A stretch of 64,000 bases of DNA. Source: Candidatus Acidiferrales bacterium. GTDB taxonomy: Bacteria > Acidobacteriota > Terriglobia > Acidiferrales > UBA7541. Where the stretch lies: contig CAVUHF010000010.1 in NCBI GenBank assembly GCA_963741195.1, positions 181,436-245,435 on the forward strand, given 5' to 3'. The notes under the pieces are model-generated. The model was not told where the DNA came from. It worked only from the letters and a program-made list of their open reading frames with translations, and did no database searches. Within the stretch, counting starts at the first letter, position 1. Each line of letters starts with the position of its first letter. The position numbers and the translations under genes were made by a program. Positions 104 to 14,581 of this stretch are shown one piece after another.

Positions 104-3100
104 ATGTCGAAAGAATTGGTTATATCCGCGACCTCCCATGAGCGTAGAGTTGCGATTTTGGAAGAAGGTCAGCTAGTCGAAATCTACATCGAGCGTGAAA
201 AAGAGTTCGCGCTCGTCGGCAGCATCTACAAAGGCAAAGTGACTCGCGTGCTCCCAGGCATGCAGTCGGCATTCGTCGACATCGGCCTGGATGGTGATGC
301 GTTCCTCTATGTCAGCGATGTCTTCGAAAACCTAGAAGACTACGATCATGGTCACGCCCCGGGCGAAGCGCCTTTACCGGCTATTGCCGGTGGTCACGCT
401 CCTTCCATCATCGAGCTGCTGCCCGGCGAATCGCTGGCCACCTCCAGCGTGCACGATGAGGGGCATGCCGATCACCCGCTCGCGGACGAGCAGCCCCACG
501 AGGAATATAACGCCGCAGAGTTCCGCGAGCGTGAAGAAGCCGCAGCTGCTCCACCCGACCAGCCTAACGAACCGGAAGGTTCTGACCTCGATGAGCGTCA
601 GCCCGAATCCAACGCTTCTGCCCCGCAGAATTTTGCTCCGAGCTACAACCCAACGCGCAGCTACCCTCCGCGCGGTGGTAGTGATCGCGGACCGGATCGC
701 GGCGGTGACCGTGGCGATCGTGGTGGAGACCGTGGCGGCGATCGTGGCCGGGGTGGCCGTCGCGGACGTTGGGGCCGTCGTCGCCCCGGGGGGAGCGGTG
801 GCGGTGGTGGACATCATCACGGCCAGGGAGGACGTACTCTTCCTCCATCCAAGTACGCTGCGCCGCAAGGCGATCGCGATTCCCGGAGCTTCGATAACCG
901 TCGCCCCATCGATCGCGTTACCAGCACTCCCGTAGATAAAACCGAAGACGATATTGTTCTCCCCGGCGAATCCCTCGCCAAGTACCGTGGGCGCCCAGTT
1001 CCCTCTCCTGTTGCAGAACCCGTTCGCGAGCAGGAGCCCGAGGAACGCCAGCCTGATTTCGAACAGCCCACCGCTCGTCCCGCCGTTGGTTTACCGCCGG
1101 GCGGAGCCGGCGTGCGTCGCCGTTTTTCCGGCAGCTTGCCCCACTGGGTACTCGCCGACGCCGAATCCGACGCGGCCGCAGTACCGGCAGAGGACACTGC
1201 CGCTGCCGCAGGCGCTTGCGAATCCACCGAGCCGATTTCCGCTCCGGTGGAGGAAACACACGAAGAGGAGGCTTCGGCGCAACCCACTCACAATGGCATC
1301 TCTTCTCTCAATGACGAGCAGCTAGCCGCTCTTTCCGCCAGTCTAGTGGAAGCCAAGCACGAGGAAACTCAAGCGCGTGCAGAAGCCGACTCGCTGGTCG
1401 GTGGCGCTGCCTTCGACGAAGAGGAAGAAGAAGCTCACGAGTCTGAGGACCACCTTCACGACGAAGAAGAGCGCGAAGAGGCAGAGCACGAAGAATCGCA
1501 GCGCTCCCGCGAAAATGCCGAAGACGAAGCCGATCGCGAACATCAGGAAGCCATCGACGCGTCGGAGTCAGATCTGCACGCGGATCGTGATTCAGAAAAC
1601 GAATCCGGACGCGAGACCGAGCATGATTCCGAACGTGAGTCCGGGCAAGACTCAGGTAACCGTTCCGCGGATTACGCCGCGCGTGTTGAATCTGAATCCT
1701 TTGCATCGATCTCTTCGCAGGGTGCATCCGCTGGATCTATGATCGAGGAAGACGTCATTCTTCTTCCCGGTGAAACGCGCACGCCGCGCGATCCCAACGC
1801 TCCACGCGAAGATTTTATTCGCCGCGACTCCGCGCGCATCGGCAGTAACCCTCGCTCCCGCTTCCAGAGGCCGCAGCGCGGCGGGCGGGACCACGGAGGA
1901 GACCGCGGTGGTGATCGGGGCGGACGCGGGCGCTTTGACCGGCCTCGTGGAAGAGATCGGGACCGCGGAGGAGACCGCGGTCCCGACCGTGGCCGTGGAC
2001 GCTTCGAGCGTCGCAGTGGTGGAGGCCACAGTCACGGCCCGCATCGCGGCCATCCGAGTGGACACGCCCCGATGCGCCGCCCGCAACTTATCTCCGAGAT
2101 GCTTAAGCCCGGTCAGGACGTCGTCGTCCAGATTGCCAAGGAACCTCTCGGCAAGAAGGGCGCACGCATTACCAGTCACGTCGCTCTGCCGGGCCGCTTC
2201 CTCGTTTATATGCCCACGATTGACCACATCGGCGTTTCCCGCAAGATCGCGAGCGCCGACAATCGTTCGCGCCTCCGCCGCCTGGTTGGCGAAGCGCGCG
2301 GCAGTTATCCCGGCGGATTCATCGTACGCACCGCGGCAGGTGGCGCCACCGACGACGAAATTCGCACGGACATCGAATTCCTGGGCAAGACCTGGAATGA
2401 AATTAAGGAGAAGAGCGAAAACCGCAAACCGCCCGCTCTATTGCACCGCGACTTAAATCTCGTCGAGCGCATTTTGCGCGACTACGTCAGCGACGATTTC
2501 ACCGCCATCTGGATCGACTCCGAAGAGGAGTACGGCAAGGTGGTCGAATTCGTTAGCCGCTTCCAGCCGCGGCTCGTCAACCGCGTCAAGCTCTATACCA
2601 AAGAGCAACCGATCTTCGAAGAGTTCGGCATCCAGCATGAACTCGACAAGGCTCTGCGTGCCAAAGTCTGGTTGAAATCCGGCGGCTACATCGTCATCAA
2701 CCACACCGAAGCGCTCGTGGCCATCGACGTCAATACCGGCAAGTTTGTCGGCAAAGGTTCCACACGCCTTGAGGACACTATCGTCAAGACCAACCTCGAA
2801 GCCGTGAAGGAGATTGTGCGCCAGATTCGCTTGCGCGACCTTGGCGGCATCATCGTCGTCGACTTCATCGACATGGAAGAACGCCGCAACCGCGAAAAAG
2901 TTCTCGCCGCGCTGCAGTTCGCTCTCGAACAGGACAAGGCTCCTTCCAAGGCCCTTTCCTTCAACGAATTCGGGCTCGTCTGCATCACCCGCAAGCGCAC
3001 CAAACAGGCGCTCGAGCGCGTGCTCTGCCAGCCCTGCCCGTATTGCACTGGCTCCGGCATGGTTAAATCCATCCCCACGCTCTGCTACGAAATTCAATCC

Positions 3101-3292
3101 GAAGCGCGCAAGATGGCCGTGACCCCCGAACACGAAGGCCCAAATCTTACCCTTCGCGTGCATCCGGAAATCGCCAAGGCCCTGAAAACGCGCGAGTCCC
3201 TGCTCATCGATGAACTCGAGCAGAACGCCCACAAGCACATCATCATTCAGTCCGATCCCACGCTGCACTGGGAGCAGTACGACATCTATTAA
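104..3292 (+). CDS. rne: Rne/Rng family ribonuclease (RNase E/G) with ~580-aa disordered insertion inside the S1 domain
   Basis: N-terminal S1 motif GSIYKGKVTRVLPGMQSAFVDIG; catalytic core VVQIAKEPLGKKGARIT, AIDVNTGK, DLGGIIVVDFIDM; Zn-link CPYCTGSG. Ends like RNase G, with no C-terminal tail. Confidence 0.93.
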   Translation: MSKELVISATSHERRVAILEEGQLVEIYIEREKEFALVGSIYKGKVTRVLPGMQSAFVDIGLDGDAFLYVSDVFENLEDYDHGHAPGEAPLPAIAGGHAPSIIELLPGESLATSSVHDEGHADHPLADEQPHEEYNAAEFREREEAAAAPPDQPNEPEGSDLDERQPESNASAPQNFAPSYNPTRSYPPRGGSDRGPDRGGDRGDRGGDRGGDRGRGGRRGRWGRRRPGGSGGGGGHHHGQGGRTLPPSKYAAPQGDRDSRSFDNRRPIDRVTSTPVDKTEDDIVLPGESLAKYRGRPVPSPVAEPVREQEPEERQPDFEQPTARPAVGLPPGGAGVRRRFSGSLPHWVLADAESDAAAVPAEDTAAAAGACESTEPISAPVEETHEEEASAQPTHNGISSLNDEQLAALSASLVEAKHEETQARAEADSLVGGAAFDEEEEEAHESEDHLHDEEEREEAEHEESQRSRENAEDEADREHQEAIDASESDLHADRDSENESGRETEHDSERESGQDSGNRSADYAARVESESFASISSQGASAGSMIEEDVILLPGETRTPRDPNAPREDFIRRDSARIGSNPRSRFQRPQRGGRDHGGDRGGDRGGRGRFDRPRGRDRDRGGDRGPDRGRGRFERRSGGGHSHGPHRGHPSGHAPMRRPQLISEMLKPGQDVVVQIAKEPLGKKGARITSHVALPGRFLVYMPTIDHIGVSRKIASADNRSRLRRLVGEARGSYPGGFIVRTAAGGATDDEIRTDIEFLGKTWNEIKEKSENRKPPALLHRDLNLVERILRDYVSDDFTAIWIDSEEEYGKVVEFVSRFQPRLVNRVKLYTKEQPIFEEFGIQHELDKALRAKVWLKSGGYIVINHTEALVAIDVNTGKFVGKGSTRLEDTIVKTNLEAVKEIVRQIRLRDLGGIIVVDFIDMEERRNREKVLAALQFALEQDKAPSKALSFNEFGLVCITRKRTKQALERVLCQPCPYCTGSGMVKSIPTLCYEIQSEARKMAVTPEHEGPNLTLRVHPEIAKALKTRESLLIDELEQNAHKHIIIQSDPTLHWEQYDIY

Positions 3293-3440: not shown

Positions 3441-3458
3441 GGTTTTTTGGAGTGGTTC

Positions 3459-3716
3459 ATGACCAAATGGCAGCTACAGGAAGCCAAGGCGCGCTTCAGT
3501 GAACTGATCGATGACACGCTCGAGAAGGGACCACAAGTCGTGACCCGTCGGGGAATCGACACCGCGGTTGTCGTTTCCATCGACGAATGGCACAAGCTAA
3601 AAGAGAGAAACCGTTTGACCTGGAAAGATGTACTTCTGGATGAAGGTCCGCGATTCGATATTCCACTCCCCAAACGCGGCACGGTCAAATTGCGCAAGCC
3701 TCCGGTGTTCGATTGA
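3459..3716 (+). CDS. vapB: Phd/YefM-family type II antitoxin
   Basis: WQLQEAKARFSELID...GPQVVTRRG is the Phd/YefM signature; ATG 3459 follows GGAG; overlaps the toxin start. Confidence 0.9.
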   Translation: MTKWQLQEAKARFSELIDDTLEKGPQVVTRRGIDTAVVVSIDEWHKLKERNRLTWKDVLLDEGPRFDIPLPKRGTVKLRKPPVFD

Positions 3717-4132
3717 TCCGCTACCTGATCGACACGAACGTGGTTTCCGAATTGCGCAAGCCTAAGCCCTACCGCGCGGCAGTCGCTTGGTTGCAAAATC
3801 TTGAATTGGGCCAAGGCTTCTTCTCGGCGGTCACATTCGGAGAGATTCAAAAGGGCGTGGAACTCACCCGTCGACAAGACCCAGTAAAGGCGAATGAAAT
3901 CGCGGCTTGGGCGGCACAGTTGGAGCGCACTTCAGAAGTTTTGCCCATGGATGCAGCGTGTTTTCGCGAGTATGCCCGTTTAATGTACCGACGTTCCGAT
4001 ACCCTAGGTGAGGATGCCATGATAGCCGCCACGGCTCGCGTTCACGGCCTCACGGTGGCCACTCGGAATGAACGCGATTTCGCGCATTTCGACGTGGCCG
4101 TCTTGAATCCCTTCAGGTATCGAGCACCGTAG
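3713..4132 (+). CDS. vapC: VapC PIN-domain toxin
   Basis: YLIDTNVVSEL, E in TFGEIQKG, DAMIAATA, TRNERDF: the PIN acidic residues are present. Confidence 0.92.
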   Translation: MIRYLIDTNVVSELRKPKPYRAAVAWLQNLELGQGFFSAVTFGEIQKGVELTRRQDPVKANEIAAWAAQLERTSEVLPMDAACFREYARLMYRRSDTLGEDAMIAATARVHGLTVATRNERDFAHFDVAVLNPFRYRAP

Positions 4133-4165: not shown

Positions 4166-4191
4166 TGGTGGAAGCGAGGGGATTCGAACCT
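4166..4191 (-). other. Isolated tRNA/tmRNA 3'-end fragment (att-like scar)
   Basis: Minus strand reads AGGTTCGAATCCCCTCGCTTCCACCA (T-loop, 3' acceptor strand, ACCA). The 5' half of the T-stem and the rest of the tRNA are missing. Confidence 0.7.
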
Positions 4192-4635: not shown

Positions 4636-7002
4636 ATGGCGCCACCATTCTTTCGCAGATTCTTCGGTCAAAAAAAGCGCGGCGGCGAGGTAGCGTCGCG
4701 GAGCACTGGAGTTACTGAAAAAAGTCTTGTTAAATCGGAGATGCCATCCACTGATGTAGCTAATCAAGAAGACAGAAACTCTTTGGATTCCGGTTCTGCC
4801 GATACCGGGGCCATGCCAAACGTAAATTCCCTTTTCGCCTTTGTAGATCCGAAGGATCCGTTTACGCCTGGTGAAATTGCAGGCGAGCAGCTACCCGGTC
4901 CGATATTGTCGATCATGAGTGCCAAGCAGTTCCATCATCTCTTCCTCTTTCATACTCCGCATACGCGAAAGCACGCAGTCGCGACGGAAAAAGAAGTGTC
5001 CAGCAGATATCCCGGGTGCCAGATCGTTGTGAACGAACTGCCCATTTCCGACCCGAAAGACTACTCGTCGGTGATGGGCCGCTTGGCGCGAACGGTACGA
5101 AGATTGATGAACCTGAGACCGTCGGAGATCGCGGACTGCTACGTTTGTGTTTCCAGCGGCACGGCAGAAATGAGAGCTGCGTGGTTTCTACTCGCTGCGC
5201 TGGGGGTTTTGCCGGCGAAGATGCTGCAAGTCGGATCACCGGCAAGGCCACTCTTCGGGGAGGCTAACGTAAAAGAAGTGCGGATGGATTCCAGCGATTG
5301 GCGAACAATTCTTGACCTTGCAATGCCCGATGAGTATTTCCGGGCTGGTGCACGAGAATCGTTCACGAAACCCGGGCCGTCGCACATACAGGCGAGAGGA
5401 GCGGGAATACCATGGTGGGTGCAGCGAAGGGCAAAGAAGCTCGACGAAAAACCCAAGGCTGGCGCGGAAACGTTTGGCTTAGACAAAGCCTTTGAGGAGC
5501 GGATGCGGATGCTATATGGGGACGCCTTGCCCGACTTCCTCTTGCCATGCCTGAGCGAAAAGGTTCGACGAAATAAAGTTTTCACCGCCGTATTTTCTCC
5601 CGACGAGCTACAGGATTTTGCGCAAGAGGTTTTTAAAAAATTCGCTGCGGCCCTTCGCCGGGAAGGTGGGGGTAATCACCCGGAGCGTTTCGAAACTCTA
5701 GCTAACTCCGTCTGTAACGACGTTTTAGTGGGCTTTTGCCAGTCTTACGGCCAGACCCAGTCGACGGAAGATTCTGACGAGCATTTGAGTGCGCTAAAGC
5801 TCACGCGAAAGCAAGTGGAGGCTCTGCGACGAGCGAGGGGGGACTCAAAACTAGTGGCGCTTGCTCGTCAGAATCTTCCGTCGAGGAAAGGACCGGCAGA
5901 AGCGGCCGAACAAGTACCGACAGAGACTGGAGAACACAAAATTATTTCGGGCGGGCCCGCGAGTCGGGAAACCTCATCGCTTGGAGAGGCAAGAAGTCTG
6001 ATTGGCCGTGAAACACCGTCAATTGCAGGCCTTGACGATGCCCTACGGGAGTTGGGGATTTTTATCGGCTCCGCGGCTCTGCGACATGCTGCGGAACAAG
6101 CGGGCATCGCCGCGGGAAGTCATCTACCAGTTCTTCTTTTGGGCGAAACAGGGACCGGCAAGGAGCGCATTGCGCACCTGATTCACAGGCTGAGTCCACG
6201 GTTTCATCGCCAGCTGGTGGCGGTCAATTGCGCGGCTATTCCGGCGACGCTCGCTGAAAGCTATCTCCTGGGCCACGTAAAGGGAGCGTTCACCGACGCG
6301 ACGACCGACGGGAAGGGGATTTTTGAGGCTGCCGACCAGGGCACGCTGTTTCTGGACGAAATCGCGGAACTAAATCTGGAAGTGCAAGCCAAGCTGCTGC
6401 GGGTTATTCATGATGGCGTAGTGCAGCGGCTCGGAAGTACCGCGCTACGCAAGGTCGATGTGCGAATCATCGCGGCGAGCAACCGCGACCTCAGGAAAGA
6501 AGTGTCCGCAGGGCGATTTCGTGAGGACCTCTATTTCCGCCTGGAAGTTGTGCAGATTAAACTGCCGGCGTTGCGCGAACGCCGGGGCGAGATTCCTGAG
6601 CTGGCGCTCATGTTGCTCAGGGAAATCAATCAGCGAAGGGAACGGCCTCACCAGCTCACGACCAGGGCTCTGGCGCGTCTTGAGCATCAACCGTGGCCTG
6701 GAAATGTTCGCGACCTCTTGAACGTACTGGAAAGGTCTGTGCTCTATTCGCGCGCAGATGTTATCGACGCTGAGGACCTGAAGTTTAATTGCGACCCACA
6801 GGGGAACGATCCTTTCGCAGCGTTGCCGGAACCATCTGATGGATTCAAGGTCGAGGAGTATCTGGCACAAATACGGAACCAGCTCTTTCTGCGAGCCCTT
6901 GAGGCCTGCAAAGGCAATCAAACGGCAGCCGCGGGGCTGTTGGGCGTTTCCAAGCAGGCGGTCAGCAAGTTTGTGCTTGGGCAAAATGACAATGAAAATT
7001 GA
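4636..7002 (+). CDS. sigma54-dependent enhancer-binding protein with N-terminal CARF/RtcR-like domain, ECF-sigma region-2-like insert, AAA+ and Fis-type HTH
   Basis: Walker A GETGTGKE, GAFTDA loop, Walker B LFLDEI, RIIAASNRDL, FREDLYFRL, WPGNVRDL, C-terminal NQTAAAGLLGVSKQAV. N-terminus has DPF..GPILSI, DPKDY and VSSGTAEMRAAWFLL (CARF-like). Alternative start ATG 4813. Confidence 0.88.
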   Translation: MAPPFFRRFFGQKKRGGEVASRSTGVTEKSLVKSEMPSTDVANQEDRNSLDSGSADTGAMPNVNSLFAFVDPKDPFTPGEIAGEQLPGPILSIMSAKQFHHLFLFHTPHTRKHAVATEKEVSSRYPGCQIVVNELPISDPKDYSSVMGRLARTVRRLMNLRPSEIADCYVCVSSGTAEMRAAWFLLAALGVLPAKMLQVGSPARPLFGEANVKEVRMDSSDWRTILDLAMPDEYFRAGARESFTKPGPSHIQARGAGIPWWVQRRAKKLDEKPKAGAETFGLDKAFEERMRMLYGDALPDFLLPCLSEKVRRNKVFTAVFSPDELQDFAQEVFKKFAAALRREGGGNHPERFETLANSVCNDVLVGFCQSYGQTQSTEDSDEHLSALKLTRKQVEALRRARGDSKLVALARQNLPSRKGPAEAAEQVPTETGEHKIISGGPASRETSSLGEARSLIGRETPSIAGLDDALRELGIFIGSAALRHAAEQAGIAAGSHLPVLLLGETGTGKERIAHLIHRLSPRFHRQLVAVNCAAIPATLAESYLLGHVKGAFTDATTDGKGIFEAADQGTLFLDEIAELNLEVQAKLLRVIHDGVVQRLGSTALRKVDVRIIAASNRDLRKEVSAGRFREDLYFRLEVVQIKLPALRERRGEIPELALMLLREINQRRERPHQLTTRALARLEHQPWPGNVRDLLNVLERSVLYSRADVIDAEDLKFNCDPQGNDPFAALPEPSDGFKVEEYLAQIRNQLFLRALEACKGNQTAAAGLLGVSKQAVSKFVLGQNDNEN

Positions 7003-7008
7003 CCGCGC

Positions 7009-7091
7009 GACAACCACCGTTGTCACGATCAGGTTTTCCGTAAGCGTAAGTAGTTGATTCTGCAAATAGTATGATTTGGTCCGCCGCGTGC
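7009..7091 (+). promoter_or_regulatory. Candidate sigma54 promoter module: UAS palindrome, IHF site, -24/-12
   Basis: GACAAC-cacc-GTTGTC (7009-7024); reverse complement of 7047-7059 is AATCAA-CTAC-TTA, matching WATCAANNNNTTR; TTGG(7078-79)-10 nt-GC(7090-91). Confidence 0.6.
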
Positions 7092-7118
7092 CTTTAGTAC
7101 CCAAGAGGCACAGAATAT

Positions 7119-8111
7119 ATGCGGACCTTGCAAGAAGAATTCTCACAAATTGAAATCGGTCGATCTTCGGAGTTCCGTAATCTCATCCTGTTTCCATTGA
7201 TGCGTAGAAGCACACCCTTCCAACCGTTGGACTATCTTCTCTTGGAAGAGGGGATAGCCCAAGGAAAAGTCCGCGTGACCGAGCTTCACGCAGGCGGAAC
7301 GGTCCCGGAGTTACGTCTTGAAAATAATGCGGACCTTCCGGTGTTGCTGGTGGACGGAGAGGAACTCGTCGGAGCGAAGCAAAACCGCGTCCTGAACCTG
7401 ACGATTCTCGCGCCGGCGAACCATACAACCGTGATTCCCGTTTCTTGTGTTGAGGCAGGGCGCTGGAGAATGGAGTCTATGGATCTGAAGGTCGCCGAGC
7501 ACCTCATGTATTCGTTGGGGCGTGGAGAACGAGTGACGCAGGTCACGGCCTCCATGCGTTCGAATGGCACGCGCAAATCTGACCAGGGAGCGGTGTGGAG
7601 AAACATCGCCTCCAAAGCGACGCGCCTCAAGGCGTCGTCGCCAACTGGCGCCATGTCCGCGATCTATGAGCGCCACGCCAGTTCGGTTGAGGAATTCGCT
7701 CGCGCATTCACCTGGCAGGAAGGTCAGTGTGGAGTAGCGTTCGCGATCGGTGGCCGAATTCTTGGTTTGGAAATGTTCGATTACCCAGAAGTGATGTACA
7801 AATTCTTCCAAAAACTAGTCCGGAGCTACGCTCTGGATGCCCTGGATGCAACTCTAGTAAGGAACGAACCGGCAAGCGTCGAAGCGGTGTGTGCGCTTGT
7901 AACTCAAATCGGTGCGGCCCGGAGTTTCACGGAGCAGGCCTTGGGAATTGGAAAAGATGTTCGGTTCACCGGCCCGGAAATTTATGGTGCGGCTCTCTGG
8001 GCACACGAGCGCTACGTACACATTTGCGCCTTCGCAAGGAGTGGCAATAGTTGCGACGCTCCTAATTTTTGGACGCGGATAACTCGCCCCAGCCACCGCC
8101 GCACGTTTTGA
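7119..8111 (+). CDS. ARPP-1 / DUF6569 family protein
   Basis: GTVPELRLENNADLPVLLVDGEELVGAKQNRVLNLTIL, IPVSCVEAGRW, SDQGAVW, KLVRSYALDAL: motifs I recognise from this family. Confidence 0.75.
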   Translation: MRTLQEEFSQIEIGRSSEFRNLILFPLMRRSTPFQPLDYLLLEEGIAQGKVRVTELHAGGTVPELRLENNADLPVLLVDGEELVGAKQNRVLNLTILAPANHTTVIPVSCVEAGRWRMESMDLKVAEHLMYSLGRGERVTQVTASMRSNGTRKSDQGAVWRNIASKATRLKASSPTGAMSAIYERHASSVEEFARAFTWQEGQCGVAFAIGGRILGLEMFDYPEVMYKFFQKLVRSYALDALDATLVRNEPASVEAVCALVTQIGAARSFTEQALGIGKDVRFTGPEIYGAALWAHERYVHICAFARSGNSCDAPNFWTRITRPSHRRTF

Positions 8112-8211
8112 GCGGTGTACAAACGAGTGAAATCGACGGGAAGAGAGCAAGTAGGGCTGAAGTTGATGTATCGAAAATCGGCAGACTGTTCCAAGAAAGG
8201 CTTCGATCAAA

Positions 8212-8703
8212 ATGTCGACTATGGACGGTGAAGTGAAGGCGGGTGATCGGTCGGTGCCTGGGCGAGATAAGGACCGCCTGGACTCCTGGAAGGAAATCGC
8301 GGTTTATCTGGCTCGCGAGGTACGCACTGCCCAGCGCTGGGAGAAGCGTGAAGGCTTGCCGGTGCACAGACACGTCCACGCGAGAGCAAGCTCGGTCTAC
8401 GCATTCAAGCAGGAGATTGATGTTTGGCTGCATAGCCTCAATCGGGCCGAGAACGAATTTGTTCGAAATGGGGAGTGCTCCGAGCCCGCGGCTGAATCCC
8501 TGAATACACCGCTGCTCGCAGCAGAGCAAATGCCGGCCAAGTCGCGGTTACGGTTGGAAAACGCTACTGCCGGAGTAGGGTCCCTGGACCTATTGCAAGG
8601 GGAGAATCGAATCCGGCTGTACTTCTATGTACAGCTGCGTGGGGAACGGGATACAAGTCGTTCGCTCAAGAAATCAGTAACTCGAGGCAGAGGCGTAAGC
8701 TGA
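8212..8703 (+). CDS. Stand-alone putative DNA-binding protein (RLDSWKEIA-type HTH)
   Basis: RLDSWKEIAVYLAREVRTAQRWEKREGLPVHRHVH...SVYAFKQEIDVW resembles an N-terminal domain common in Acidobacterial proteins. Confidence 0.65.
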   Translation: MSTMDGEVKAGDRSVPGRDKDRLDSWKEIAVYLAREVRTAQRWEKREGLPVHRHVHARASSVYAFKQEIDVWLHSLNRAENEFVRNGECSEPAAESLNTPLLAAEQMPAKSRLRLENATAGVGSLDLLQGENRIRLYFYVQLRGERDTSRSLKKSVTRGRGVS

Positions 8704-8866
8704 ATTTACCAAGGATCTACACCGTCAGGCTGCGAGCATGTCGGGACTGCACTGAAAAGTTCAACGGCCGCTTGGCCCGTGCTGCTTCTTGCTGAGGTAT
8801 GGGGCTCTTACTGGCTGAGGGAATTTACGCCCCTCAAACGGCGCTCGTGGAGATGAGCTCGCAATA

Positions 8867-9196
8867 GTGCGAGATGGCATTTCCCACATCGCGAGTTGTC
8901 GTTCGTTTCGTCGAATCCAACATGAGAAAGGCTTGCCGGATTCGCATTGGGGAATGGTCGAGGAATTGTACTGCGCCGATGGCGGCACCTTTCTTCTCTT
9001 GAGCAGTCACAAGACCCTGGCGGAAATCGACAAGGGCTTGCTGGAGAGCAAACAGTTGATGTCGGCCAGGGGGGAAGATGGCATGAAGAAACTGGACGAG
9101 TTCTATGCGGAATGCTGCGAAGCGGCACAACAGCAATTATTTGCTTTCAGCCATCGCCAGAGCTACGCTGTGGCAGCGGCTCTGGGCTTCCAGTAA
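8867..9196 (+). CDS. Hypothetical protein (start uncertain; possibly a fragment)
   Basis: Open frame with protein-like composition; no recognisable motif; no clear RBS. Confidence 0.3.
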   Translation: MRDGISHIASCRSFRRIQHEKGLPDSHWGMVEELYCADGGTFLLLSSHKTLAEIDKGLLESKQLMSARGEDGMKKLDEFYAECCEAAQQQLFAFSHRQSYAVAAALGFQ

Positions 9197-9612
9197 TCCG
9201 CATCGGCCTTGATCCATTCATCCTGCACGCAAAAGCTTCGCCGGAGGACCAGAGGGCGAAGCCGTAGGGATACAAAGAATGTCTCTCGCGAGCAGTGTCC
9301 AGAGCGGGAGGGGCAAGAGAGTTTGCATTCGCCCCACTCCGGTGCCATGGCTCGGACATAAAACACAACCTGGACAGTGCGCTTCCTGCAAGAAACGGAT
9401 GCAGGACGTATTGAGCTCGAGACGAAGGAGGCATCGAATTTGCTAGTCCCGCCAAAACACATCCGCCCCGCCGCAGTCCGGTTGCAACTCAGCGCCTTAG
9501 TAAGGCGCGTGTTGCACAAGTGCGTTTCAATCTCCGGAGAGCGCACCAGGACGGTCAGGAGAACCGCTTTTAGCCGCGCCCGCTCGGAAGCCGCGGTCAG
9601 CGCTATCCGAGG

Positions 9613-9641
9613 TTGACAGGGGATGGTGACGGCCTTATCGT
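9613..9641 (+). promoter_or_regulatory. sigma70 promoter for the ABC permease pair
   Basis: TTGACA(9613-9618)-17 nt-TATCGT(9636-9641), 52 nt before ATG 9694. Confidence 0.6.
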
Positions 9642-9693
9642 TCAGCGCAGCTTTGAGATTGCAGACGGAGTTTCCCGCTACGAGGCCGCCTTC

Positions 9694-10929
9694 ATGAGTC
9701 GTCGAGTCCCGCTTCGCGAACCGATCGGCGTGGCCCTGGAGACCCTGCGGGCACACAAAATGCGTTCCTTCCTTACGCTGCTTGGCATCATCCTTTCCGT
9801 TTCCACGTTAATCGTAGTGATCGCCTTGATCTCCGGCGTGAACCGCTATATCGCCGAGCGCGTCGCCAATCTCGGCTCGAACGTTTATCTACTCACAAGG
9901 TTCCCCATCATCACCGACGTTGACGAATACGTGAAGGCCAACCGGCGCAACAAAAAAGTAACCTGGGACGACTATGAATCTCTGCGCGACAATCTGAAGC
10001 TCCCCTTGCGGCTGGGCGTTGAACAGCGGACCTCCGGCAAAGTCCGCGTCGGCTCGCAGAGCGTCGACGATTCCAACATCCGTGGCGTCACTGCCAACAT
10101 GGGCGAAATTGATCCCGTCGTGCCGGCGAACGGCCGCTACATTACCGAAGGGGATGATGAGAGCCGCGCGCTGGTCACCATGATCGGCAACGACCTGGCT
10201 ACAAAGCTTTTTCCGAACGTCGATCCCATCGGCCGCGAGATTCTCATCGATGGCCGCCCGTTTGAGGTCGTCGGAATCGCCAAGCCGATCGGCTCGGTTC
10301 TCGGCCAGTCGCAGGACAATTTCGCCTACATCCCCATTCAAACGTACTTCAAGATCTACGGATCCTACGATGGCATCTGGATCAATATCCAGGCTCGGGG
10401 CGCGGAGTGGATGGAGCGCACCCAGGATGAAACGCGCGCCCTGATGCGCGCGCGGAGGCACTTGTCTCCCAATGAAAAAGACAACTTTGGTATCTTCGAC
10501 TCGGCCACGCTGATGGATCTCTGGAAAAATCTTACCGGGGTGATTGCCACGGCCATGGTGGGAGTGGTTTCCGTCTTCCTGGTGATTGGTGGCGTGGTGA
10601 TCATGAACGTGATGCTCGCTGCCGTCACGGAACGAACTCGTGAAATCGGCATCCGCAAAGCGTTGGGTGCGCGCCGTCGCGACATCCTCCTGCAATTTAT
10701 GGTGGAAGCAGCCGTCATGGCCGCCGTCGGTGGCGCCATCGGTGTTGCCATTGCTTATATTATTTCCGGTTTGACCACGGCGACCACCTCCGTTCCGATG
10801 TCCGTGCCGTTTTCTGCAGTCGTCATTGCGGAAATGATTTCTGCGGCGGTCGGTGTGTTCTTTGGTGTCTACCCCGCAAGAAAGGCCGCGGGTTTGCAGC
10901 CCATCGAAGCGCTGCGTCAGGAAGTCTAG
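9694..10929 (+). CDS. MacB/FtsX-family ABC transporter permease
   Basis: KMRSFLTLLGIILSV; GGVVIMNVMLAAVTERTREIGIRKALGARRRDILLQF; GVYPARKAA.L.PIEALR. Start taken at ATG 9694. Confidence 0.9.
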   Translation: MSRRVPLREPIGVALETLRAHKMRSFLTLLGIILSVSTLIVVIALISGVNRYIAERVANLGSNVYLLTRFPIITDVDEYVKANRRNKKVTWDDYESLRDNLKLPLRLGVEQRTSGKVRVGSQSVDDSNIRGVTANMGEIDPVVPANGRYITEGDDESRALVTMIGNDLATKLFPNVDPIGREILIDGRPFEVVGIAKPIGSVLGQSQDNFAYIPIQTYFKIYGSYDGIWINIQARGAEWMERTQDETRALMRARRHLSPNEKDNFGIFDSATLMDLWKNLTGVIATAMVGVVSVFLVIGGVVIMNVMLAAVTERTREIGIRKALGARRRDILLQFMVEAAVMAAVGGAIGVAIAYIISGLTTATTSVPMSVPFSAVVIAEMISAAVGVFFGVYPARKAAGLQPIEALRQEV

Positions 10930-10946
10930 CGAAGGGAGAGAACCGC

Positions 10947-12209
10947 ATGAGCATGCATATCAGCGAAAACGCTCAGATGGCGCTCACCACGCTGCGTGAG
11001 AATAAGATGCGTTCTTTTCTGACCGTCCTCGGCGTCGTCATCGGCATTACCGCACTGCTCAGCGTGGTCTCCATTCTGGTGGGCGTCTATAGCAATGTGA
11101 ATGATTACTTATCCGACTATGGGCCCGAAACTTTGTTCATATTTCGCTTCGATCCGGGAATTCATACGGGGCGGCTCTCACCCGAAGAACGCGACCGCAA
11201 AACTCTCAGCTTTGAAGATGCCGAGGCCATCAGGCAGTTCTGTCCGGCCGTGCGCGCCGTCACGGCAAGCCTGTACCCGCGTTTTGTCGAGGACGGGCCG
11301 CAGACAGGGCCCGTTACCGCGCGCTATCTGAGCAAGGAAGTCTCCGGCATCGACTACAACGGGACGCTTCCTTCCACGGAGGAAGTCTTCAATTCCAGAC
11401 CTCGGCGCGGACGATTTTTCAGCGACGCCGAAAACCTGCACCGCGCCGATGTCGCCTTGATTGGCTCGGATATTGCCAAGAGCTTATATCCAGATATGGA
11501 TCCGCTGGGAAAGCCCATCATGATCAATGGCGTATCCTACGAGGTCATCGGGGTCCTTGAGCCGCGCAAGGGCGGCTTCGTCAAAGATCAATCCGCCGAC
11601 AAAGCGGTGATGGTCCCGTATCGCTCCTATCACAAGCACAACCCGCAGGACGACGAGAATTTCATCGGCGCCGTTGCTTATCCCGGAAAGATGGCCGAAG
11701 CAGAAGACCAGATCCGCGCCGTGTTGCGCCGCCGCAGAGCCGTGCCGTATAACAAGCCCGACAATTTTGGTATCTCCAGCGCACAGCAGATCGCCGACCA
11801 GTTTCGCCAGATTACCGCGTCGGTCGCCTTGTTGATTTCCGTCATCAGCTCGATCGGGCTTCTTGTTGGCGGCGTTGGCGTAATGAACATCATGTTGATG
11901 TCCGTCACGCAGCGTACTCGTGAAATCGGCGTGCGCAAAGCCATCGGTGCGCGGCGCCGCGATGTCATCTGGCAATTCCTGACCGAAGCGGTTGTCCTGA
12001 CAGGCGCGGGAGGCGTAATCGGCGTACTGCTCGGTGGCGGAATCAGCCTACTGATCAACCTTTTCGTGCCGAGCCTGCCTTCCTCCATTCCTCTCTGGGC
12101 CATAATTCTGGCCGTGGCTGTTTCCATGAGCGTCGGCCTGTTCTTTGGGATGTATCCCGCGATAAAAGCGGCTCGTCTCGATCCCGTCGAAGCCTTGCGC
12201 TACGAGTAA
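10947..12209 (+). CDS. MacB/FtsX-family ABC transporter permease
   Basis: KMRSFLTVLGVVIG; GGVGVMNIMLMSVTQRTREIGVRKAIGAR; GMYPAIKAARLDPVEALRYE. Confidence 0.92.
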   Translation: MSMHISENAQMALTTLRENKMRSFLTVLGVVIGITALLSVVSILVGVYSNVNDYLSDYGPETLFIFRFDPGIHTGRLSPEERDRKTLSFEDAEAIRQFCPAVRAVTASLYPRFVEDGPQTGPVTARYLSKEVSGIDYNGTLPSTEEVFNSRPRRGRFFSDAENLHRADVALIGSDIAKSLYPDMDPLGKPIMINGVSYEVIGVLEPRKGGFVKDQSADKAVMVPYRSYHKHNPQDDENFIGAVAYPGKMAEAEDQIRAVLRRRRAVPYNKPDNFGISSAQQIADQFRQITASVALLISVISSIGLLVGGVGVMNIMLMSVTQRTREIGVRKAIGARRRDVIWQFLTEAVVLTGAGGVIGVLLGGGISLLINLFVPSLPSSIPLWAIILAVAVSMSVGLFFGMYPAIKAARLDPVEALRYE

Positions 12210-12253
12210 GCAGTCTGCGCTCGAGGAGTCGCTGGACACCTCGCCGCAAGCAG

Positions 12254-12282
12254 TGGACTTGGAGACTTTCCCTACATATGAT
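12254..12282 (+). promoter_or_regulatory. Candidate sigma70 promoter of the corrinoid/MttB operon
   Basis: TGGACT(12254-12259)-17 nt-TATGAT(12277-12282), about 170 nt upstream of ATG 12452. Confidence 0.45.
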
Positions 12283-12451
12283 TAGGGCACGCTCCCGGGC
12301 TTCTTCATTCGAGGTACACGTCGCGGCCCGCTTGTGGCAGAGACGGAATTCTCTTCCGCAATGATGTTCCATCGGAACAACTCTCAACCTGATTAGAAGA
12401 GTGTGCGCATCCGCTTTGCCTAAAATAGACCGCACGCGAGGTCGAACTCTC

Positions 12452-13102
12452 ATGCCCGACGAGCTTCTCGAATTGATGAAGCAGTCCATCCTGGAAGGCG
12501 ATCCCGATCGGGCCAGAGCACTCAGCCTGCGAGCCGTCGCAGAAGGCATGAACCCGCTGGACGCAATCAATCACGGCTTCGTTCTGGGGTTGCGCGCTGT
12601 TGGCGAGCAATTCGAACAAGGAGAAATGTTTCTTCCGGACCTGGTCCTCGCGGGCGAAGCGATGAAAGCCGCAACCACCGTTTTGGAGCCGGAAATCGAT
12701 AAGATCGGCGCGACCCGCAAGTCGCTCGGAAGGGTTGTGCTCGGCACGGTGAAAGGCGACATACACGAAATTGGAAAGACTTTGGTGGGCACGATGCTGA
12801 CCGCCAACGGCTTCCAGGTTTTCGACCTCGGCGTTGATGTGTCTGGTGAGGACTTCGCACGAAAGGCCGCGGAACTCGACGCGAACATCGTCGGACTTTC
12901 CGCGCTGTTGACCACCACCATGACTGGACAGAAAGATGTGGTCGAAGCTCTCGCGCGCCAGGGACTGCGCCCGCAAGTGAAAGTCATGATCGGCGGAGCC
13001 CCGGTCACCCAGAGCTGGGCCGATGAAATTGGCGCCGACGGCTATGGGAAAGATGCACAGGCTGCTGTGGCCCTGGCAAAAAGTCTGACGGGCAAGTGCT
13101 AA
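12452..13102 (+). CDS. Methyltransferase cognate corrinoid (B12-binding) protein, MttC/MtbC-like
   Basis: Cap domain GEMFLPDLVLAGEAM; B12 motif GDIHEIGK, SALLTTT, VMIGGAPVT. Confidence 0.92.
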   Translation: MPDELLELMKQSILEGDPDRARALSLRAVAEGMNPLDAINHGFVLGLRAVGEQFEQGEMFLPDLVLAGEAMKAATTVLEPEIDKIGATRKSLGRVVLGTVKGDIHEIGKTLVGTMLTANGFQVFDLGVDVSGEDFARKAAELDANIVGLSALLTTTMTGQKDVVEALARQGLRPQVKVMIGGAPVTQSWADEIGADGYGKDAQAAVALAKSLTGKC

Positions 13103-13120
13103 CTCTGCAAGAAAGTCGGA

Positions 13121-14581
13121 TTGGGATTACGCATGCAGCCGAGTCTTTTACTTCTTGAACCGCAATTGATCGACCGAATTCTTGGCGAGGCCTTTGCGCT
13201 GATTTCCGAGCGCGGCGTCTCCGTGCAGGCGCAGGCAGCGATCGAACTGCTCGCAGCCGGCGGCGCCCGCATTGAGAACGGCTCGGCGCACCTTCCGGAG
13301 TCGCTCGTCCGTTGCGCCCTGGAAACAGTACCCCGCGAGTTCTCGCTCTACAACCGTGCCGGCCAACCCGCCGTGAGGTATGGCGGAAATAACGTGCAGT
13401 TCGACCCCGGTTCTTCCTGTGTGCACATCCTTGACCCAGACACGCTGGAACACCGTATGACCCTGGCGCCAGATCTGGTGAGGCTCATCCAGGTTGCGGA
13501 AATGCTTCCGCAATTCGCAGCGCAGTCGACTGCCGTGGTTTGCACGGAAGTAACTAAAACCATCGGCGATCTATTCCGGCTCTTCGTCGTACTCCTCTAT
13601 TCCAACAAACCGATCGTGACCGGAGCGTTCTCACCGCACGCCGCCCCGGTGATGATTGAAATGCTCGCGATAGAGAGCGGAGGGCTCGTCGGTTCGCGAG
13701 CGAAGCCTCGCGCCATCTTCGACGTTTGTCCGTCGCCGCCGCTGCATTGGACGGAATTCGCCGCGCAGAATTTAGTTGATCTTGCGCGCGCCTGGGTTCC
13801 CGCGGAAATCATATCGATGCCAATCGCGGGCGCGGCTTCGCCAGTCACGCTTGCGGGAAGCATCGTGCAACACGCCGCGGAATGTCTCAGTGGAATCACG
13901 ATTCACCAGCTGGCGCAGCCTGGCGCCCCCGTCGTGTGGGGCGGCGCACCGTCTATTTTTGACATGCGCAGTGGCATTACGCCAATGGGCTCGATGGAAA
14001 CCTGCCTATTGAATGTCGCATCGGCGCAGGTTGCAAAATCCTTGGGCTTGCCGACACACGGCTACCTGATTGGCAGCGACGCAAAGACCGTCGATGCGCA
14101 GGCCGGTCAGGAAAGTGGAATTGCGGCGGTGATGGGCGCGCTGGGTGGAATCAATATGATTTCCGGAGCCGGTATGTTGGACTCGCTGGCCTGCCATAGT
14201 GCGGAGAAACTCGTTCTCGATGCCGAATCGATTGCCATGGCGCAACGTCTGCTTCGAGGAGTGCAAGCGGGCACAGAATCACTGGCTCTCGACATGTTCG
14301 CAAAGCTAGGCGCGCAGGGTGACTTTCTGAAATTGCCGGTAACCCGAAAGCTGTTCCGTCTGGAGCAGCACATTCCGGCAAAAGTGATTGATCGCGGCTC
14401 TCTCAACTCGTGGGAGCAATCGGGAAAGAAAGATGCATTCGCGCAAGCGAAGGAAAGGGTCAAGGAACTCGTCGCTGCATACAAGCGCCCGGAGTTGCCG
14501 CCGGACGTGGAGCAACACTTGCGGAGCATTGTTCAGGAACTAGCAACACGCGAAGACATGGAACACGTACCGGTCGTCTGA
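13121..14581 (+). CDS. MttB-superfamily amine:corrinoid methyltransferase, non-pyrrolysine
   Basis: SPPLHW, MPIAGAASPVTLAGSIVQHAAECLSG, FDMRSG, SDAKTVDAQAGQES, GAGML, EKLVLD; no in-frame amber codon. Confidence 0.9.
   Translation: MGLRMQPSLLLLEPQLIDRILGEAFALISERGVSVQAQAAIELLAAGGARIENGSAHLPESLVRCALETVPREFSLYNRAGQPAVRYGGNNVQFDPGSSCVHILDPDTLEHRMTLAPDLVRLIQVAEMLPQFAAQSTAVVCTEVTKTIGDLFRLFVVLLYSNKPIVTGAFSPHAAPVMIEMLAIESGGLVGSRAKPRAIFDVCPSPPLHWTEFAAQNLVDLARAWVPAEIISMPIAGAASPVTLAGSIVQHAAECLSGITIHQLAQPGAPVVWGGAPSIFDMRSGITPMGSMETCLLNVASAQVAKSLGLPTHGYLIGSDAKTVDAQAGQESGIAAVMGALGGINMISGAGMLDSLACHSAEKLVLDAESIAMAQRLLRGVQAGTESLALDMFAKLGAQGDFLKLPVTRKLFRLEQHIPAKVIDRGSLNSWEQSGKKDAFAQAKERVKELVAAYKRPELPPDVEQHLRSIVQELATREDMEHVPVV

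Follow-up and report, generated by a model that had tools for sequence, protein, structure and literature searches.

The window analyzed here, a 64,000-nt stretch of contig CAVUHF010000010.1 (GCA_963741195.1) from a Candidatus Acidiferrales bacterium, carries two open reading frames (ORFs) arranged in tandem on the + strand, the first of which (4636-7002) encodes a CARF-containing sigma-54 activator and the second (7119-8111) the protein ARPP-1, or DUF6569. This arrangement, which an initial annotation had claimed from the letters, is confirmed by Pfam analysis at both ORFs. The explanation that we favor, albeit with some reserve, is a self-contained and inducible stress or repair cassette of the Rtc type with a different output, namely ARPP-1. 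The evidence that carries this reading is the repeated linkage of the two genes, the domain content of the regulator, a putative sigma-54 control region that lies between the genes and is found together with the activator, and the selection acting on the cassette.

Searches with the N-terminal 459 residues of the regulator returned 246 relatives, and the genomic context was looked up for seven of them (541-796 residues, 42-68% identity over the aligned part), which have unrelated surroundings. In all seven, ARPP-1 is located immediately 3' of the regulator gene, on the same strand and about 120-135 bp away. An alignment of diverse ARPP-1 proteins was used for retrieving 80 metagenomic loci, which were then screened for the activator with tblastn; L-numbers are the labels of the compared ARPP-1 loci. 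The activator is found upstream in 13 of the 15 informative metagenomic loci whose ARPP-1 shares at least 50% identity with that of the window. Among the 34 informative loci with a distant ARPP-1 (37-49% identity), two (L033 and L071) possess a same-strand CARF activator. A divergent CARF activator lies one gene away from ARPP-1 in L059, and in L052 a sigma-54 activator is present, also divergent, in which no CARF domain could be detected. The neighborhood analysis that the initial annotation had proposed as a check thus returned CARF-type enhancer-binding proteins linked to ARPP-1 elsewhere, and the reading of the annotation withstood this check. Judging from these loci, the two genes are tightly associated within a single ARPP-1 clade, which is mainly acidobacterial, and only sporadically elsewhere, the named relatives being Candidatus Acidoferrum and Bryobacteraceae. 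The NCBI pipeline names the near regulator homologues "RNA repair transcriptional activator RtcR family", a label of consequence for annotation, as it is borne by regulators that are not located beside rtcBA.

Regarding the completeness of the cassette, 89 ORFs that flank it in 23 linked loci were surveyed with Pfam, and no recurrent partner gene emerged. ADP-ribosylglycohydrolase (ARG), macro and phosphatase genes do not recur in these 23 loci and are not found within about 5 kb of the cassette in the window, the sole exception being L013, which possesses Macro and HD genes about 2.5 kb upstream. Neither RtcA nor RtcB is encoded in the window flanks or in the 23 linked loci, and no cas or nucleotidyltransferase gene recurs in the flanks of the linked loci, most of which comprise housekeeping or metabolic genes (e.g. 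YceG, RimP, GidA, ThyX and L31). Since no extra gene recurs in the flanks, the cassette represents a complete minimal form and not a truncation. The initial annotation, which had noted the absence of the usual partner enzymes and had left a minimal or a truncated version open, was therefore right as to absence and minimality, and its truncated version is not retained. The ratios of non-synonymous to synonymous substitutions (dN/dS), calculated between the window and five to seven related loci, are 0.14-0.19 for ARPP-1, 0.05-0.13 for the CARF domain, 0.11-0.15 for the AAA+/HTH part of the regulator (HTH, helix-turn-helix), and 0.31-0.45 for a small HTH protein encoded downstream of ARPP-1, while ARPP-1 identity amounts to 75-96% across more than 100 clusters. 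These values indicate that all parts of the cassette are under purifying selection and functional, and that strong constraint bears on both sensor and effector. The cassette differs in this respect from conflict systems, of which rapid evolution is a hallmark (Iyer et al. 2022, PMC9503650).

The regulator comprises 788 residues and displays the following features:

4636-7002, + strand: regulator gene, encoding a CARF domain, a sigma70-region-2-like insert, a sigma-54 AAA+ domain, a lid and a Fis-type HTH (Pfam, PADLOC, NCBIfam)
4825-5340, + strand: CARF sensor domain, residues 64-235, with the invariant loop VCVSSGTAEMRAAW at nt 5143-5184 (PF06956, AlphaFold2, Foldseek)
5461-5808, + strand: helical insert, residues 276-391, resembling region 2 of ECF-like sigma-70 proteins (BLASTP)
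6067-6801, + strand: sigma-54 interaction AAA+ domain (Sigma54_activat, PF00158, E-value 1.9e-62) and lid (AAA_lid_14, PF25601, E-value 2.3e-18)
6889-6963, + strand: C-terminal Fis-type HTH (HTH_8, PF02954)

Pfam analysis reports a match with the RtcR/CARF family PF06956 (residues 99-203; 32.7 bits for a cut-off of 23.1), besides a weaker match with the Csm6 CARF domain. The Walker A motif GETGTGK (residues 503-509, nt 6142-6162) and the Walker B motif LFLDE (residues 571-575, nt 6346-6360) of the AAA+ domain are both intact. The top PADLOC model is RtcR_PspF2--CARF_AAA_HTH (PDLC01995, E-value 3.6e-121), and the homologues align with the window protein starting at residue 1. The NCBIfam equivalog of RtcR (NF038308) returns a score of 314.3 bits, its cut-off being 650, indicating that the regulator is not RtcR proper. 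The analogy with RtcR-RtcAB drawn in the initial annotation consequently applies to the architecture and does not extend to membership, given this score and the lack of rtcBA genes.

An AlphaFold2 model was obtained for regulator residues 1-470, in which the CARF core reaches a pLDDT of about 90. The PDB matches that Foldseek returns for the modelled N-terminus are exclusively CARF proteins: Csm6 (E-value 2.6e-8), Cam1 and the Cad1 CARF domain (TM-score about 0.7), as well as Card1, Can2 and ring nucleases. The CARF loop SSGTAEMR is invariant together with its basic residue, S173, S174, G175, T176 and R180 being unchanging among the homologues. In the CARF domains of RtcR, the basic residue following strand 4 is mostly missing (Makarova et al. 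2014, PMC4012209). Because this residue is kept and the fold is nearest to that of cyclic-oligoadenylate binders, the ligand is likely of the nucleotide type, and a cyclic oligonucleotide, an RNA ended by a cyclic phosphate or an ADP-ribose derivative can be put forward as candidates.

The regulator and ARPP-1 genes are separated by a spacer of 116 bp (7003-7118), in which four elements were recognized:

7006-7027, + strand: inverted repeat CGCGACAAC-N4-GTTGTCACG, a putative activator site located 4 nt past the regulator stop codon (comparison of loci)
7047-7059, + strand: TAAGTAGTTGATT, an IHF-like site between the repeat and the promoter (conserved block AAGTnnTTGATTCTGC in linked loci)
7077-7091, + strand: sigma-54 type -24/-12 element TGGTCCGCCGCGTGC (GG-N10-GC; comparison of loci)
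3' end of the spacer, + strand: AAGAGG, 10 nt ahead of the ARPP-1 ATG (sequence)

The perfect core of the repeat occurs once in the window and is found at the same position in L005, L016, L017, L020 and L033, and its GTTGTC half-site is retained in most linked loci. Both this half-site and the AAGTnnTTGATT block are maintained where the N-terminal halves of the regulators have diverged to 45-70% identity. The sequence TAAGTAGTTGATT matches the reverse complement of WATCAANNNNTTR, which we take to be the IHF consensus. When the spacer motifs of 22 activator-linked loci were compared, 18 loci displayed a -24/-12 element upstream of the ATG, at a distance of 42-87 nt, and the distant L031 and L071 exhibit the canonical TTGC at -12. 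In the sister loci devoid of activator (L002/L007, L003/L004 and L021), the repeat, the IHF-like site and the -24/-12 element are all missing, ARPP-1 being still 78-79% identical. For the segment 7003-8211, the predictions include neither a sigma-70-like promoter nor a terminator on the + strand. As far as can be judged from sequence, the target gene thus possesses a putative -24/-12 promoter and, upstream of it, a putative activator site. The sigma54-type control region of the initial annotation is real by its position and by its conservation over 22 loci, and could not have been called from the window alone. As a side observation, L030 (3773-4541) contains a -24/-12-like element before an interrupted ARPP-1 gene, with a 541-residue low-complexity ORF upstream and no activator gene, and may be a decayed copy.

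The two genes that follow the spacer are:

7119-8111, + strand: ARPP-1/DUF6569 gene, 330 residues, with the motifs DGEELVGAKQNR (7353-7388) and PVSCVEAGRW (7437-7466) (PF20208)
8212-8703, + strand: gene of a small HTH protein, 163 residues, with the core LDSWKEIAxYLxRxVRTxQRWEKxEGLPVHRH encoded at 8278-8373 (homology)

PF20208 covers ARPP-1 end to end (profile positions 1-297 out of 297 in total, 298.9 bits, E-value 5.3e-89). The residues that are invariant in 65 diverse ARPP-1 homologues include Q88, R90, N93, C110, E112, R115, Q156 and W160, and the invariant residues fall in the motifs DGEELVGAKQNR and PVSCVExGRW. This agrees with the "absolutely conserved cysteine and glutamine" described for ARPP (Iyer et al. 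2022, PMC9503650), to which C110 and the glutamines Q88 and Q156 correspond. The same work matches what the initial annotation had stated of the ARPP-1 name, as referring to an association with ADP-ribosylglycohydrolases and phosphatases, and of its unknown activity. The AlphaFold2 model of ARPP-1 is of high quality (pLDDT 92.7, pTM 0.90) and has no structural relative with an E-value below 0.01 in the PDB or in BFVD, a database of predicted viral structures, and no sequence relative is found in the PDB. The interest of ARPP-1 lies in this combination of a large family (7,941 clusters at 50% identity, with an E-value of 1e-3 or better), invariant catalytic-looking residues, and a confidently predicted fold devoid of any solved relative.

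Longer members of the family are fused to a VWA domain, to VWA and PARG domains, to an ARG, or to an N-terminal DSP-type phosphatase. The neighbors of distant ARPP-1 genes comprise MerR (five cases), ARG (four) and WYL/WCX regulators (four), as well as PARG, Fic, AbiEi and BrxA, and a RecB-like nuclease gene is found near ARPP-1 on a Pimelobacter plasmid. Three themes recur around ARPP-1: the removal of ADP-ribose, the processing of nucleic-acid ends, and regulation through a transcription factor that senses a ligand. On the strength of these associations, an enzyme acting on ADP-ribose or on ribose-linked adducts or ends may be suggested, tentatively. No ARPP-1 was found in 50,697 phage genomes; two partial matches were obtained among 2.9 million viral contigs, and three among plasmids. 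As a separate observation, in L059 (219-8294) the genes of SbcD and SbcC come next after a distant ARPP-1 gene (45% identity), which hints at a link with DNA-end processing, and upstream of this ARPP-1 gene lies a divergent operon composed of a 350-residue gene of no assigned function and an RtcR-type CARF activator.

The initial annotation had described a two-gene system and had overlooked the small HTH gene; the regulator/ARPP-1 pair stands, and the cassette usually comprises three genes. Indeed, most close loci possess the small HTH gene 3' of ARPP-1, and this applies also to those devoid of activator. Its product does not belong to any Pfam family, and its core is excisionase/MerR-like, with weak matches to HTH_17, HTH_23 and MADS1-HTH. 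It is probably switched on together with ARPP-1, as co-transcription would imply. The spacer between the two genes (8112-8211) is about 100 bp long, of near-constant length and 66% identical among the loci compared (L005, L016, L017, L019, L022 and L023). A conserved RNA structure was considered for this spacer and is unsupported, with a folding energy of -3 kcal/mol and no covariation.

The insert separating the CARF domain from the AAA+ domain (residues 276-391) does not return any direct Pfam match. BLASTP analysis reports 33% identity (E-value 6e-17) with a 221-residue L002 protein that matches Sigma70_r2 and r4_2, and the identity between insert and sigma protein reaches 65% in other pairs. 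The insert is predicted to be helical (AlphaFold2, pLDDT about 85), is missing from the 541-630-residue forms of the regulator, and evolves faster than the remaining regulator, with a dN/dS of 0.25-0.65. To our knowledge, no other enhancer-binding protein possesses a domain resembling region 2 of sigma-70. In the close ARPP-1 loci without activator (L002:5803-7741 and L003:5572-7735), a divergently transcribed gene pair is present instead, encoding a 295-residue protein without Pfam match and a 353-428-residue protein with Sigma70_r2 and r4_2 matches. On the Granulicella tundricola plasmid NC_015057 (244152-247572), the neighbors of a DUF6569 gene are a divergent gene of the sigma-70 family and the gene of a zf-HC2 anti-sigma. 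The regulator has been swapped at an otherwise conserved core formed by ARPP-1 and the HTH gene, and a domain exchange between two alternative regulators of one target is the simplest reading of the insert.

If we assume that the regulator works as RtcR and NtrC do, the CARF domain would hold the AAA+ domain inactive until a ligand derived from a nucleotide or an RNA end binds to it (PMC7790460, PMC9650030, PMC4012209). The freed activator would then assemble on the inverted repeat located just past its own stop codon, and a bend at the IHF-like site would bring it to the sigma-54 RNA polymerase at the -24/-12 element, where ATP hydrolysis would open the promoter for ARPP-1 and, probably, for the small HTH gene too. 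This regulatory logic can be held with considerable confidence, as domain content, promoter architecture, linkage and purifying selection all speak for it, activation by a ligand being its analogical part. ARPP-1 itself is likely a cytoplasmic enzyme that would use the invariant Cys110, Glu112, Arg115 and Gln88, and it probably acts on ADP-ribose or ribose-linked adducts or on the ends of macromolecules, so that the damage generating the signal would be removed. A bolder version, which we regard as rather unlikely, makes ARPP-1 a new class of enzyme that reverses ribose/ADP-ribose-type lesions and makes the CARF activator a receptor for a second messenger, a damaged RNA or an ADP-ribose ligand; the insert might in that case provide the activator with an unprecedented extra contact, either to RNA polymerase or to an anti-sigma-like partner. 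If true, the cassette would represent a second, mechanistically distinct, damage-response regulon of the Rtc type.

Among known systems, RtcR-RtcBA of E. coli and Salmonella resembles the cassette in that a CARF-AAA+-HTH activator is located beside the sigma-54 promoter of a small effector operon, both being signal-sensing and stress-inducible. They differ in their output, the RtcB ligase and the RtcA cyclase in one case and ARPP-1 in the other. The regulator of the cassette lies in tandem upstream of its target, whereas E. coli rtcR is divergent from rtcBA, and it possesses in addition the sigma70-region-2-like insert and the basic CARF residue. The CARF domain of RtcR senses tRNA fragments that end in a 2',3'-cyclic phosphate (PMC7790460). 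The pairing described here would therefore extend the RtcR paradigm, a CARF-controlled sigma-54 regulon that answers damaged nucleic acid, to a second output. RtcR homologues also head other, non-Rtc operons (PMC4012209, PMC11090510). These RtcR_PspF activators, found in CoCoNuT and restriction-modification superoperons, belong to the same family as the regulator of the cassette and are likewise located at the 5' end and on the same strand as their presumed targets. However, those targets are nuclease or restriction genes, whereas the cassette is short and slow-evolving, comprises ARPP-1 and the small HTH gene, and has mostly housekeeping surroundings.

The ARPP systems described by Iyer et al. 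(2022, PMC9503650) are centred on ARG, and they include two-gene pairs of ARPP with a WYL regulator, a HIRAN protein or a PF01522 deacetylase. The pair formed by ARPP and a WYL regulator is close to the cassette, with the same ARPP domain, the conserved Cys and Gln, and a ligand-sensing transcription factor. WYL and CARF have been viewed as counterparts in the sensing of signals derived from nucleotides (PMC9503650, PMC4012209), and this parallel strengthens the idea that ARPP-1 responds to such a signal. In contrast, the sensor of the Iyer et al. systems is a one-component WYL/Nudix repressor, while that of the cassette is a positive sigma-54 CARF activator, and the cassette is devoid of their ARG, macro, phosphatase and chaperone genes and hence is not ARG-centred. 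The Acidobacteria loci linked to an ECF-like sigma (L002, L003 and Granulicella) share with the cassette an ARPP-1 of 78-79% identity, the same small HTH gene, and a sigma region 2 resembling the insert. They differ from it by a divergent sigma-70-family regulator with its partner, and by the lack of sigma-54 promoter, IHF-like site and repeat. While RtcR-like CARF activators away from rtcBA, the ARPP family, and the pairing of ARPP with a WYL regulator were known, we found no published description of a CARF-sigma-54 activator paired with ARPP-1. Iyer et al. (2022, PMC9503650) do not bring up CARF, RtcR or sigma-54 in connection with ARPP, and no paper linking ARPP/DUF6569 to any of the three was found in a search that lay outside the CARF census of Makarova et al. 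(2020). Of note, ARPP-1 is met here in its simplest context, with one sensor-activator, one promoter and one effector, which renders both its function and the CARF ligand tractable.

Several observations weigh against an inducible cassette. The L1 loop that contacts sigma-54 reads GAFTDA (6283-6300) and not GAFTGA, its F and T being kept; among 120 regulator homologues scanned, GAFTGA was counted in 47 and GAFTDA in 22. The HTH_8 match of the window regulator scores 21.1 bits, below the Pfam cut-off of 22, and several homologues are over this threshold. The -24/-12 core in the window is weak (TGGTCC/GTGC rather than TGGCAC/TTGC), and the element is degenerate in four of the 22 linked loci. The motif TGG-N9-TGC by itself shows no enrichment over the window, where 39.6 sites are expected and 50 observed, so that the promoter call rests on position and cross-locus conservation. 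No RpoN box is encoded in the 64-kb window, an expression lookup returned soil DNA metagenomes only and no RNA run holding the region, and no ADP-ribose enzyme is found in or near the cassette. As ARPP-1 has no relative of known activity, its proposed chemistry is drawn from association only. The weak -24/-12 match, which is insignificant alone, and the lack of RNA runs would also fit a mere adjacency, in which ARPP-1 has an ordinary promoter and other genes are the targets of the activator, as would the occurrence of some close ARPP-1 genes without activator. However, the two genes remain neighbors in more than 20 loci with differing flanks, and no sigma-70-like promoter is predicted in the spacer. 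Mere adjacency is very improbable because the spacer motifs co-vary with the presence of the activator.

Two further explanations accept the linkage and assign another role to ARPP-1. If the cassette were an anti-phage module, the signal sensed by the CARF domain would come from infection (e.g. cyclic oligoadenylate or products of RNA cleavage), and the induced ARPP-1 would act as a toxic or abortive effector or would counteract the ADP-ribosyltransferases of phages. The CARF fold is indeed nearest to that of the cA6- and cA4-binding Csm6, Cam1 and Cad1, the regulator is hit by the CARF models of PADLOC, homologues of RtcR stand at the head of CoCoNuT and restriction-modification defense superoperons (PMC11090510, PMC4012209), and ARPP has been proposed to act within ARG-centred anti-ADP-ribosylation systems (PMC9503650). 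Mobile or defense genes also occur near some loci (IS110 and a reverse transcriptase in L001, TIR-PDZ in L002, an integrase beside P0213). However, only the regulator matches PADLOC, with no hit for ARPP-1 or the small HTH protein, the flanks are mostly housekeeping or metabolic, and no cas or nucleotidyltransferase gene recurs nearby. Moreover, ARPP-1, with its low dN/dS, evolves slowly, unlike arms-race effectors, and it is absent from the phage genomes and nearly so from the viral contigs. We therefore consider an anti-phage module unlikely, and purifying selection, housekeeping neighbors and the near-absence of ARPP-1 from phages make us lean towards a stress or repair function over an arms-race effector. 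Of the "counter-conflict or repair" role foreseen by the initial annotation, a conserved stress/repair role is thus the part that we retain, counter-conflict being less favored on the same grounds.

It may also be envisaged that ARPP-1 mainly regulates the activator, as PspA does with PspF or RtcA/RtcB with the CARF domain of RtcR, instead of working as an enzyme on its own, and that the cassette is a feedback circuit with its true targets elsewhere. Activation of RtcR requires RtcAB, which bind its CARF domain (PMC9650030), the family label of the regulator is RtcR_PspF, the tight 1:1 pairing of the CARF subfamily with ARPP-1 would fit a physical partnership, and the sigma70-region-2-like insert could serve as a docking surface. 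However, C110, E112, R115, Q88, R90 and N93 are invariant across about 7,900 clusters, most of which lack such an activator, ARPP-1 is fused to enzymes elsewhere, and close ARPP-1 genes are paired with a different regulator, the ECF-like sigma. Such a feedback partner is improbable as the main function of ARPP-1, and this role could possibly coexist with an enzymatic one.

Upstream of the cassette, and just before the regulator gene, the window harbors on the same strand a Phd/YefM antitoxin gene and a PIN (VapC-type) toxin gene (3447-4132). RelE/BrnT toxins have been reported upstream of RtcR-CoCoNuT loci (PMC11090510). Among 18 loci, a toxin-antitoxin pair is located directly upstream only in the window and in L015, their Phd/PIN pairs not being orthologous, and one further locus has an Rv0623-like gene. 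With such upstream genes in only two to three of the 18 loci, a VapBC toxin as generator of the signal was mostly rejected, and the pair is probably incidental. Between the toxin gene and the regulator, a 25-nt look-alike of a tRNA 3'-end (T-loop, acceptor arm and CCA) is found in reverse complement at 4166-4190, once in the window. The initial annotation had placed the genes behind an att-like scar; the 25-nt sequence is real and appears incidental, since it is restricted to the window. ARAGORN and Rfam do not detect any tRNA, an integrase and a repeat partner were likewise not found, and the sequence has no counterpart at the other linked loci, for which reasons it was rejected as a part of the cassette. 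Further upstream, an RNase E/G homologue of 1062 residues (104-3292) exhibits the catalytic domain only at residues 695-966, its approximately 690 N-terminal residues being without Pfam match. Downstream, the roughly 900 bp past the HTH gene (8704-9612) contain short ORFs that have neither a Pfam match nor a counterpart in related loci and may be degraded or lineage-specific. The following segment (9613-14581) encodes two tandem MacB/FtsX-type permeases, a B12-binding protein and an MTTB-family methyltransferase, apparently unrelated to the cassette.

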